From Octopus sinensis (Eukaryota), in assembly GCF_006345805.1 (NCBI RefSeq), contig NW_021828271.1:1-8948 (forward strand): a DNA stretch of 8,948 bases, written 5' to 3'. Both the position numbers and the translations under genes were made by a program. The notes beneath the pieces were generated by a model. That model ran no database searches and was not told the origin of the DNA. It saw only the letters and a program-made list of their open reading frames with translations. This document shows positions 733 through 8,948 of this stretch, in pieces; within the stretch, counting starts at the first letter, position 1; the number at the start of each line of letters is the position of its first letter.

Positions 733-761
733 ATATATATATATATATATATATGTATATA
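733..761. repeat. (TA)n microsatellite
   Basis: Direct inspection. Confidence 0.95.
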
Positions 762-928
762 CTAGTGCTACGGAATTTAACGATTAATTAATCAATTAAT
801 CGTTAATTTAATTTAACGATTAAACTTTTATTAATCGGTTTCCAATTTCTACCCATCATTAATAAATGTGCCGTAAGTCGGGAAGCAATAGTAACAACAG
901 TAAAATGCCAGTGGAAGCGATTTGAGTT

Positions 929-1191
929 ATGAAATATAAACCTATATCATCAGGTCGATTACGTGAACATTTTGGATTTAAATTGTAGGCTGACGGTAAT
1001 ATCAAAACTGCTGATAACGTTTATTGCATCCATTGCGACAAATCGTTCGCATACCGTGTTTCTAACACATCGCTTACTTACCACCTTCAAACAAACACTC
1101 GCTACAGTATTCGAAACCTCAGTAAGCAAAGTCAGCTTCATTTAGTCATCTACAGGTAGCGTCATCTACCTCCAAGCAGACTACTTTGAGC
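929..1191 (+). pseudogene. hAT transposase N-terminal fragment (BED zinc finger)
   Basis: From ATG 929: MKYKPISSGRLREHFGFKL*ADGNIKTADNVYCIHCDKSFAYRVSNTSLTYHLQ, then a frameshift to KHSLQYSKPQ*...SKQTTL. This matches the BED pattern HF..CxxC..NTSxLxxHLxxKH. Stop at 986, frameshift near 1091. Confidence 0.85.
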
Positions 1192-1272
1192 CATACAGTT
1201 CTATTTAAGAGATGAGGAATTATGTACATTATTTACAATTGACAGATATTTGTCCTCATCTTGTTTGTTGCT

Positions 1273-1318
1273 AACACAACGTTTCGGCTGATATACCCTC
1301 CAGCCTTCGTCAGGTGTC
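1273..1318 (-). ncRNA. Minimal type I hammerhead ribozyme (Penelope-like-element type)
   Basis: Minus strand: GACAC-CUGACGA-A-GGCUG(GAGGGUAUAU)CAGCC-GAAA-CG-UU-GUGUU. All core nucleotides are present, with a 5-bp stem II, a 5-bp stem I (one G-U) and palindromic ACGU in place of stem III. Confidence 0.75.
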
Positions 1319-1366
1319 TTGGGGTAATTTCGTACCTGGGTTCTCATTCCTAAGGTATTTTTCGAT

Positions 1367-1397
1367 GCTGTTGTTGTTGTTATTATTATTATTATTA

Positions 1398-1455
<58 letters not shown>

Positions 1456-1470
1456 CATCATCATTATTAT
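1367..1470. repeat. (TGT)n/(TAT)n/(CAT)n trinucleotide microsatellite
   Basis: Direct inspection. Confidence 0.95.
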
Positions 1471-1510
1471 TCAGGTCACTGCCTGGAATCAGGTCATTGC
1501 CTGGTCTATT

Positions 1511-1853
1511 CATCCGGTGAGTGCTGTTGTACAACATGACCTTAAAATATCACTTGCAAACTGGACAGCTAATAGTGGTAGAAGAATATCGATAGTAGAT
1601 GATGATCTTCAGCAAGTATTGCGCACAGCACTTCAAAATACCGACTAAATAACTACCTTGCCAGTGCTCTATTGATAAAATGTTGGCTGATATTTATAAT
1701 AGCAAAAGAGAAAGTGTTAGAGAAGCAGTGAAAAATTCAAATGCAATTGCACTAACATCTGATTTTTGGACATCCCTTGATAATGAAAGTTATTGCGGAA
1801 TCACCAGCCATTCGATTGCAGATGACTGGAATTTTAGAGTTAAAGAATGCTGA
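1511..1853 (+). pseudogene. hAT transposase fragment (DNA-binding region and first catalytic Asp)
   Basis: HPVSAVVQHDLKISLANWTANSGRRISIVDDDLQQVLRTALQNTD*, then a frameshift to LPCQCSIDKMLADIYNSKRESVREAVKNSNAIALTSDFWTSLDNESYCGITSHSIADDWNF. This matches the hAT motif ALTxDxWTS..SYxxxTxHxI..W (Asp at 1761). The rest of the catalytic domain is missing. Confidence 0.9.
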
Positions 1854-2142
1854 TTTTATAGTTTTAAATTTTAAAGGGCCTAAAGGTAGCTGAAAGAATG
1901 TCGCGTATAATATTAAATATTCTATGACAATCTGAAAACAATAGAAACTTTTAAACGTTTACTGGTTTTTATGAAATGTTTGTGTTAAAGGACTCCTGTT
2001 AACGGAAGCTAAATATAACGGAAGTTAATTAGTCCGATAATGATGTTCAAAGTTAAATTAAAAGTTAAATCGTTAACGAAAATGTTAACTTCGTTCATTA
2101 ACGATTAACAGGTTAACAGACTTTCGCCTAGCTCTGAATATA

Positions 2143-6755: not shown

Positions 6756-7056
6756 GTTTGTTCCTTCTCGAGCTATACCTGGCTCATACGAGCCGGTTTC
6801 CCGGTTTCTTTGGCGTATTGGTTCCCCACCTGGACGGGACGCCAGTCCGACGCAGGTGAGCTGTAAGATGCATGAGGAAAGAGTGTGAGAAAGTTGTGGC
6901 AATGAGTCAGCAGAAGTTCGCCATTACCTTCTGCTGGAGCCTCGTGGAGCTTAGGTGTTTCGCTCATAAACACACACATCGCCCGGTCTGAGACTCGAAC
7001 CCGCGATCCCTCGACCGCGAGTCCACTGCTTTAACCACTAGGCCATGTGTCTCCAC
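6756..7056 (-). mobile_element. Apparently full-length tRNA-derived SINE (~300 bp) with intact Pol III boxes
   Basis: A box TGGCCTAGTGG (7045-7035) and B box GGTTCGAGTCT (7001-6991). Internal 9-bp hairpin CAGCAGAAG/CTTCTGCTG (6908-6936), body motif GGACTGGCGTCCCGTCCAGG, short AAC-type tail. CpGs are retained. Confidence 0.88.
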
Positions 7057-7317
7057 AAAGTGTATGTGCTGTTATGCAAGTTTGACTGACTGGTTTACAT
7101 CTATTTGAGTTTGTATACCCAAGGCATAACTATAAACTAAACTTCCTTTCGGGGGACCAAAGAAGGGCTTCCTTCCTCTTATGAATCTCTGGCAAGAAAC
7201 TAATGAGAATGATCTCTTCCTTTTCTGTCCACAACAAGTGCTATCAGCATATAATGTATTTTTGTATACAGAGTAAATTTTATTTCTGTTTTGATATTTG
7301 ACTGTATATTTCAATAC

Positions 7318-7642: not shown

Positions 7643-8198
7643 GTCAGGTCACTTTCGAGTGCTACTGGTAACATGTAACCCAGTACAACCTGTTGCATGG
7701 TCGGGTCGTCGGCGACTAAACCGGCAACCCCACCAAGCTTGCTTGGTATGGAAGGTGTTTATTGGACACGCTGTGGGATGAAAAACAAAACCCGTCAATG
7801 GGCGGAGGAACTCTTGAGAGTCGACGGCCAGCCAAGAAATGTCTTAAGGCTGTATCATGCGCGGGGACATAGAAATAATCGGACTGAATACCCGACCACA
7901 CGGTTAAACCATTGGGAGTGAAGGACTCCTAGACTTTGTTAGGGCATCCTTCTAGGATAAGGTAACTCAGGTAACTGGGATAACTTCGACATAAAACCTG
8001 CGGCTCTCAGTGGTTACCGATGATGTTGACTTGTTCTTCTTTTCGGATTATGGTTGCTGTTGCTTAGTGAGAGGGATTGACTCAGTGCACAGCCTTTCCT
8101 CACTTTAAAAGTAATCTTCTTGCACAGGCATTGCACGATAACAACATTGATTAAGCTTCGTGCAATGACCATACTCGATAACGAGGGGGCAGCCACCA
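7643..8198 (+). mobile_element. Non-coding, non-autonomous RTE-LINE-derived element (5'UTR-like body plus short tail)
   Basis: GC-richer ~555-bp island between (TA)n and a (TATC)n tail. GGGCATCCTTCTAGGATAAGGTAACTC..AAACC (7942-7998) resembles, from memory, the conserved RTE 5'UTR motif GGCAACC..CTAGGAGAAGGAAAACTC..AAACC. Many hairpins and no RT/endonuclease ORF. Confidence 0.6.
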
Positions 8199-8370: not shown

Positions 8371-8529
8371 GGTTCTGCTCGACAGCTTCCAGATAATCGA
8401 ATCTTATATGCCTTTTGGTTTAAATCAAAAATCTGTCTGAGCCAAACGAGGTATATTTGTTGTGATAACCTCAGATATAGATTGGATGGTTTCCTTTACA
8501 TCCTAGATCTACTTAACTATATCATTGTC

Positions 8530-8880
8530 ATACGGTATATTCGGCTACGTGCGTCATCTTCATTACTGAGAACTGGTAGATCTATTCGCCAAATATTTAA
8601 TCACGGATAATTTGTATGAGTGAAACTCCGTGTAACACAGGAGAAATTCACAAAACGCTTCTCAATGAATACAAGTTTTTCATTATGTATTGAGTGTTCT
8701 TTTCTTCTGAACATAAACATAAACGCCTGTGCCAAGATACAGAAATCAGGATTAAGTTTTTCCAACGCTATATCTGCATCTTTTACCATTGTACATCTTA
8801 TCTATATCGGAGGCTTTCTCAAGATGACGCTATATCCATGTTAACTACGATATACAGATTGCTACGTTGAACCAATACTG
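8530..8880 (-). mobile_element. Possible highly decayed Penelope-like element 3' end (GIY-YIG remnant)
   Basis: Minus strand SIGST*QSVYRS*HGYSVILRKP resembles YIGxTxxxLxxRxxxH. It is followed downstream by a decayed hammerhead-like core AUGAAGA-U-GAC..GCC-GAAU (8563-8539). Weak. Confidence 0.25.
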
Positions 8881-8948
8881 CTTCCGTCGCTGAAAATGAA
8901 TTTTTACTCAGCTCGCCAGCCATTGGCGAGACCGGTCATTTCTGATCA

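Follow-up and report, generated by a model that had tools for sequence, protein, structure and literature searches.

A decayed pseudo-LTR in the Octopus sinensis genome, from a Penelope-type retroelement with a tRNA-like head that is likely an RNA polymerase III promoter

To our knowledge, the promoters of Penelope-like elements have been dissected mainly in D. virilis. For Poseidon_Ac of Anolis carolinensis (PAc), reverse transcription is described as starting, in vitro, at two internal sites that bound the tail, both target strands being cut and extended, and insertion as proceeding without a need for hammerhead cleavage (PMC11167929). The minimal hammerhead ribozymes of Penelope pseudo-LTRs are, in the account of PMC4209133, thought to act as dimers and to cleave poorly. 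The Sm-alpha and Sj-alpha repeats of Schistosoma are described as tandem non-coding units freed by cleavage (PMC6765202). Here we analyse a repeat at positions 1194..1504 (minus strand) of a stretch of 8,948 nucleotides from Octopus sinensis (contig NW_021828271.1), referred to as the window. The repeat is a damaged example of the terminal repeat that an abundant, protein-coding Penelope-type element carries. Judging from its sequence and that of its relatives, it probably represents a solo pseudo-LTR, now decayed, of an autonomous Poseidon-type Penelope, whose tRNA-like head is likely an internal promoter for RNA polymerase III (Pol III).

All features listed in a preliminary description of the repeat were found where it had placed them, in the window sequence, by TRF and in the minimum free energy (MFE) fold. 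Read along the minus strand, a remnant of the 3' part of the tRNA-like head (1472..1490) is 100% identical to positions 54-72 of the complete head in locus L002; the B box ends with the GATTCC at 1490-1485, as had been surmised. An (AAT)n/(AAC)n linker of 105 nt (1367..1471) follows, which by sequence consists of 102 nt plus AGC and in which TRF assigns 30.7 units to 1380-1471. A spacer (1366-1319) then separates the AAT tract from a minimal type I hammerhead motif (1273..1318). The start codon of the Penelope ORF is at 1347-1345 and its first approximately 50 codons span 1194..1347; the frame, which opens 835 amino acids in the consensus, hits a stop in the window after a 2-nt deletion. A 9-bp hairpin (1210..1261; arms 1261-1253 and 1218-1210, present in the MFE fold) is located inside this coding sequence, and the last part (1194..1218) belongs to the Penelope "tail", a 26-nt extension that, from the arm-end counts in the family, is present on one arm of an insertion. 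The copy as a whole is a dead fragment, a decayed solo pseudo-LTR. It is not a chance arrangement, as a search of 2.72 Gb of genome gave at least 1916 first-look candidates for copies of the tail, 40 of which were scored and are 93-96% identical.

The repeat interrupts a decayed hAT-type DNA transposon on the plus strand. The left part (733..1193) has a zf-BED match above cut-off at 989-1111, and homology to other copies starts at 733; the element has 25 matches. The right part (1505..2136) shows homology up to 1834 within the collected loci, and its end around 2136 is tentative, placed by eye only from a weak terminal inverted repeat. Elsewhere in the window, a distinct tRNA-headed SINE that has A and B boxes of its own is found at 6757-7057 (minus strand; 21 matches among the collected loci), its head bearing only a loose resemblance to the Penelope head. 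A near-perfect inverted repeat at 2586-2845 (125-nt arms, 94% complementary, 10-nt spacer), within which Rfam miRNA matches stay below threshold, is probably a MITE or fold-back insertion. Non-simple stretches amid microsatellites at 7646-8185 and 8371-8948 resemble repeats or coding fragments; the former has no matches among the collected loci.

A tRNA-like head had been predicted upstream of the linker, and when genomic copies are extended past 1490, intact ones have it: most copies carry a 75-nt head, 5' of (AAT)n, with both A and B boxes. The head aligns end to end and collinearly with host tRNAs (z about 7 against shuffles), the best among the 42 tRNA sequences in the comparison, which represent seven amino-acid types, being tRNA-Arg(TCT) and tRNA-Cys with 47-48 of 75 positions identical. 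Neither ARAGORN nor Rfam calls a tRNA in the head, and a phage tRNA search gave three weak matches, each of them under tRNA genes and the best with an E of 0.05. Possibly the head corresponds to an octopus SINE that already has a name. The start of the head is straddled by a palindrome of 10 nt, with fold-back centred there in 6/30 copies.

The preliminary description had envisaged a distinct SINE carrying a Penelope-derived tail. This view is not supported: the whole unit of head, (AAT)n, hammerhead and tail is the terminal repeat of a coding element, and what was taken for a borrowed tail is in frame with the ORF. Coding sequence resembling a GIY-YIG domain directly precedes the head in 2 of the first 30 loci, and among 30 loci picked by GIY-YIG, 26 show, further downstream and in the same orientation, a match to head or tail (L052 counted via the hit table). 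Walking upstream from GIY-YIG leads to a reverse transcriptase (RT), and in further loci the tail continues straight into the ORF. The unit of head, (AAT)n, hammerhead and hairpin is placed just after the GIY-YIG stop codon and again before an 835-codon ORF. The consensus of 72 pieces (2613 nt, sense) is one open frame; with the tail consensus, an ATG at tail position 20 opens 835 codons and the frame runs through the hammerhead. The frame is 835-841 codons long and has an RVT_1 match in Pfam. For a GIY-YIG domain Pfam gives no match on the ORF consensus; from its motifs, we take the domain to be present. Relatives that are 56-68% identical carry RT domains, and pseudo-LTRs overlap the ORF start in several loci (L125, L168 and others).

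A 38-nt GT-AG intron candidate was considered and rejected: the frame is open, excision would remove conserved N-terminal residues, and a relative from another source (P0189) aligns through these same residues, reading through the hammerhead region. No joint of such an intron is present among the contigs searched. By every feature tested except a retained intron, the element of the window is a member of the EN+ Penelope-like elements. It appears to be of the Poseidon type, judged from the domain order, the N-terminal alignment and the absent Neptune zinc finger rather than from an RT tree. A distant-protein search for control families returned the same family in all 30 loci and in 5/8 further stretches, and another family in 3/8. 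Metagenome relatives are represented by nine distant loci, and the five that were scanned contain no B-box motifs, a result of little informative value. A second young Penelope-like family, C-rich and with an 835-aa open frame and a hammerhead-like motif, was encountered in loci L182-L184; its long direct repeats are 99% alike, and a Neptune-type zinc finger was recognised by eye.

Insertion marks could be analysed in 46 of 60 loci. Head-to-head inverted arrangements are present in 28/46, and 19/46 have a target duplication of at least 9 nt with one mismatch allowed, compared to 3.8% of 1500 random pairs. The duplications measure 9-17 bp, and of the 22 loci in which a tail arm is inverted, 18 show one. 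Where the direct arm ends at 170-174, the end of the inverted arm is at 136-149 in 20/22 cases. The 3' ends of 123 units peak at tail position 148 (19/123) and at 173-174 (46/123). Position 148, which is 1219 in the window, is the last loop base of the hairpin, making the hairpin a likely start region for RT. The head-to-head inversions, the two 3' ends, the target duplications and the linkage to GIY-YIG bear out the suggestion that the repeat is mobilised by a Penelope-like element. By analogy with PAc, RT would start from two internal sites, with both target strands cut and extended. In five loci (L237, L238, L260, L097 and L106) an arm starts at tail 127-128, at the beginning of a 9-nt unit that is reiterated also at inverted-arm ends; these starts possibly reflect repeated re-priming by RT.

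The hammerhead motif contains all core bases. On the minus strand, helix I is formed by 1318-1314 and 1277-1273, CUGACGA (1313-1307) is followed by an extra A at 1306, helix II is formed by 1305-1301 and 1290-1286, and after GAAA (1285-1282) comes C-GUU, without a loop III; both helices are present in the MFE fold. The lack of loop III, the palindromic 15.2-16.2 pair, the extra base between positions 9 and 10.1 and the G10.1-C11.1 pair are as described for metazoan minimal hammerheads, while the GUU triplet sets it apart, as does the tRNA-like head, tRNA and Pol III being absent from the main text of that paper (PMC4209133). Rfam makes no hammerhead call in the window, folding of 1200-1370 yields no greater stability than folding of shuffles (z -1.15), and MFE folding of two hammerhead strands does not give the dimeric ribozyme. 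The motif is predicted to cleave only as a dimer, between 1278 and 1277. As copies rarely start at its cut site (1/30 ORF-linked copies starts near it), the hammerhead seems not to define the template, in keeping with PAc, where insertion is described as independent of cleavage. Retrozyme-type head-to-tail arrays are absent from 60 tail- or head-picked loci, in which units are single or head to head.

Instead, most copies start at the head. The 5' ends were sampled from the first 30 of 444 exact head matches, which favours well-kept copies and a single chromosome; by x-drop extension, 23/30 have their 5' end at -14..+4 relative to the head start (BLAST extends four of these to -22 at most), and 7/30 run 44-994 nt further. 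With random truncation, such a pile-up has a P of 2e-23 at the rate of the seven longer copies, and of 2e-7 assuming a truncation rate of 1 in 50 nt. Exact genome-wide counts drop about 6-fold over the head start, from 5407 for a head 21-mer to 888 for the 20-mer just upstream, and copies holding both regions retain the two words equally (16/56 each). By our estimate there are roughly 19,000 heads, and roughly 3,000 copies that include upstream sequence, each inverted pair contributing two. The ORF start was used to pick 30 loci, some of them redundant, and nine of these have a forward head match: four start at the head start (L236, L240, L243 and L257), two start upstream (L248 and L249) and three inside the head. 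L168 is a fifth ORF-linked 5' repeat starting at the head, making 5/7 of those that reach the head start. Copies of tandem type (L248, L249, L046, L116 and L124) imply that some templates began upstream of a head.

Pol III initiates slightly beyond the 5' edge of the tRNA-like part of its templates and terminates at runs of four or more T (T4). The 2613-nt sense consensus has no T4 run; the expected number is 3.0 with synonymous permutation (P 0.027), 5.0 under a frequency model (P 0.0025) and 4.5 after shuffling (P 0.009). Runs of four G are absent as well (P 0.26 and 0.047). A head-less Neptune-type family of the same genome has five T4 runs against 4.4-5.3 expected, a control that consists of a single family of different base composition. 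A-rich ORFs low in T carry few T4 runs anyway, and the T4 result is a moderate one. Together, the pile-up of 5' ends at the head and the T4-free consensus make Pol III transcription likely; the head would thus act as a Pol III promoter, possibly for the whole coding element. Contigs from runs of four organisms cover head and tail, three of them also most of the ORF start; such contigs, none of which is recorded as RNA, give no transcript start, strand or level. The most far-reaching form of this reading, in which the whole coding element is transcribed by Pol III from a captured tRNA promoter, with a 2.5-kb ORF kept without T4 runs, capless translation and the shedding of about 16,000 solo repeats that resemble SINEs and seed (AAT)n microsatellites, we regard as evenly balanced.

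The transcript would begin at the head, some 6 nt ahead of the tRNA +1, and could extend through the T4-free ORF. The element protein may bind the ORF start in the RNA, with RT beginning internally at tail 148 and 174. Since promoter and RT start would lie within about 280 nt, a short copy resembling a SINE could come from any solo or 5' repeat. With both target strands nicked, two cDNAs would result, joined head to head inside the 9-17-bp duplication, and the palindrome of 10 nt at the 5' end of the RNA would sometimes form the joint. The (AAT)n tract would be carried along and expand afterwards. The hammerhead, for which a dimer is predicted to be necessary, would not set the limits of the template.

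The abundance of short copies could also be explained by an independent tRNA SINE with an acquired Penelope tail, copied in trans from master copies of its own. Short head-starting copies outnumber ORF-linked ones by about 5:1, they could act as masters because both the promoter and the RT start site are within them, and in Adineta pseudo-LTRs are reported to be enough for mobilisation in trans (PMC3846280). Against this, the identical unit is present at both ends of the coding element, the tail is coding sequence, and no diagnostic position distinguishes 52 short from 68 ORF-linked units (0/21 variable positions differ; lowest P 0.051). Because the two sets do not differ in this sample, we consider the unit a pseudo-LTR and not a separate SINE lineage, and an independent SINE highly improbable. 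The short copies have a tRNA-related head with A and B boxes and begin at it; they work like a tRNA SINE, yet do not form a non-coding lineage separate from their partner.

Alternatively, the head might be a passive captured fragment of a tRNA or SINE, with Pol II producing the element, either from an internal promoter of the Inr/DPE type or through tandem read-through; the 5' pile-up would then be due to RT stalling or switching template at the palindrome or the tRNA-like fold. The D. virilis Penelope promoter is indeed described as LINE-like, internal and TATA-less, with Inr and DPE (PMC2377424), the 5' ends of Adineta pseudo-LTRs as marked by palindromes without any tRNA (PMC3846280), and tandem-type copies exist. 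However, the ends are at the 5' side of the tRNA-like part and not at the 3' side, where RT meets the fold first, a palindrome of 4 bp and a 2-nt loop makes a weak barrier, and the absence of T4 runs is left unexplained, which makes a passive head unlikely. A weaker version of our preferred reading, counted within the confidence we place in it, limits Pol III to the short repeat RNAs and has the coding mRNA made by Pol II read-through. The tandem-type copies agree with this, and the short copies are accounted for without translation of an uncapped RNA, for which a Pol III promoter of the coding element offers no explanation. But of the ORF-linked 5' repeats extending as far as the head start, most begin at that point, and the ORF is without T4 runs; such a division of labour is possible, if on the doubtful side.

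The copy in the window has a history of its own. Compared with empty hAT sites, about 11 target bases are missing and there is no target duplication. In locus L142 (G000:C10 near 24.77 Mb), an insertion occupies the identical base of a hAT element from the same family; it has a complete head, one arm that is inverted and a target duplication of 10-12 bp. Its inverted arm and full head are found where the window shows the second copy of a 16-mer (1489..1504); the pair, at 1504-1489 and 1486-1471 of the minus strand, has one mismatch and a TT spacer, and short letters are common to both joints of the duplication, as read from the sequence. As its sister copy in L142 is complete, the window copy probably lost its 5' part later: it likely inserted into the hAT element as a complete inverted unit, the 5' half was lost afterwards, and the second 16-mer likely arose at the repair of this loss. 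The preliminary description had called it a 5'-truncated copy; truncation at insertion is probably not the case. A TCTATT at both ends was considered as a target-site duplication and rejected, one of the two being located within the tail. The flanks of the window copy and of L142 have 4/48 derived changes in common, no more than other hAT copies, with a star-like pattern. Because the flanks are no closer than this, it is the identical junction, and not its surroundings, that points to a common origin of the two insertions. The presence of a Penelope insertion at the same base in two otherwise unrelated-looking hAT copies (window 733-2136 and L142) suggests that a retroelement insert travelled as the cargo of a DNA transposon. 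With the Penelope insert inside it, the hAT copy would have moved in the course of its burst.

The prediction that the element spreads (AAT)n was correct in that every unit has an internal (AAT)n of variable length, so the family brings (AAT)n to each new site. Among 130 units the linker has a median of 33 nt (quartiles 21-59, range 1-356), the 105 nt of the window being long, and we infer later expansion after insertion. The Penelope family is in this way a source of thousands of (AAT)n microsatellites in the Octopus sinensis genome. Other elements often interrupt the linker (L014 and L091; L016, L018 and L028), namely a LINE 3' end, presumably R4/Dong-like, and another AAT-tailed repeat. The Penelope element seems to create landing sites for microsatellite-targeting elements.

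If the head is indeed a promoter, the case is unusual: Pol III would be able to express an autonomous retroelement from tRNA-type A and B boxes, which poses the question of cap-independent translation. A SINE-like family would have arisen from within its own autonomous partner, and since promoter and RT start are in one short repeat, SINE-like families would need no separate SINE-LINE fusion. No tRNA-headed Penelope is described in the open literature searched, as far as its text was available (PMC13282606 included); Repbase, Dfam and subscription journals were outside its scope.

As in PAc, in the description of PMC11167929, a single ORF encodes RT and, C-terminally, GIY-YIG, the pseudo-LTR extends over the ORF start and the start codon is upstream of the hammerhead cut site. 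Two 3' ends bound the tail in both, here at +129 and +155 from the ATG and in PAc at +111-118 and further on, and a stem loop is located at the inner site, that of PAc being AC-rich. Unlike PAc, for which the available text of the same paper mentions neither such a head nor a Pol III promoter, most copies here start at a tRNA-like head. The Pen2, Pen2a and Pen3a families of Adineta vaga likewise have inverted pseudo-LTRs, 5' palindromes and solo repeats, there with 8-10-bp duplications, but tRNA and polymerase III are absent from the main text of the report (PMC3846280). Non-LTR retrozymes are also short, pseudo-LTR-derived hammerhead repeats and non-autonomous Penelope derivatives; they differ in being defined as tandem arrays, and the main text of that report (bioRxiv 10.64898/2026.07.22.740005) is without tRNA, Pol III or octopus. 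The D. virilis Penelope shares a promoter in the terminal repeat, putative in our case, although it is of the LINE-like Inr/DPE type there and consists of A and B boxes here (PMC2377424). The nearest precedent for a Pol III promoter combined with a hammerhead is Sm-alpha of Schistosoma: in the account of PMC6765202, Sm-alpha and Sj-alpha are short repeats in which a Pol III promoter is followed by a hammerhead, the order also seen here with a putative promoter. Unlike in Sm-alpha, the octopus unit is the end repeat of a coding element, its insertions are head to head, and most copies retain the putative promoter, which lies upstream of the cleavage site.
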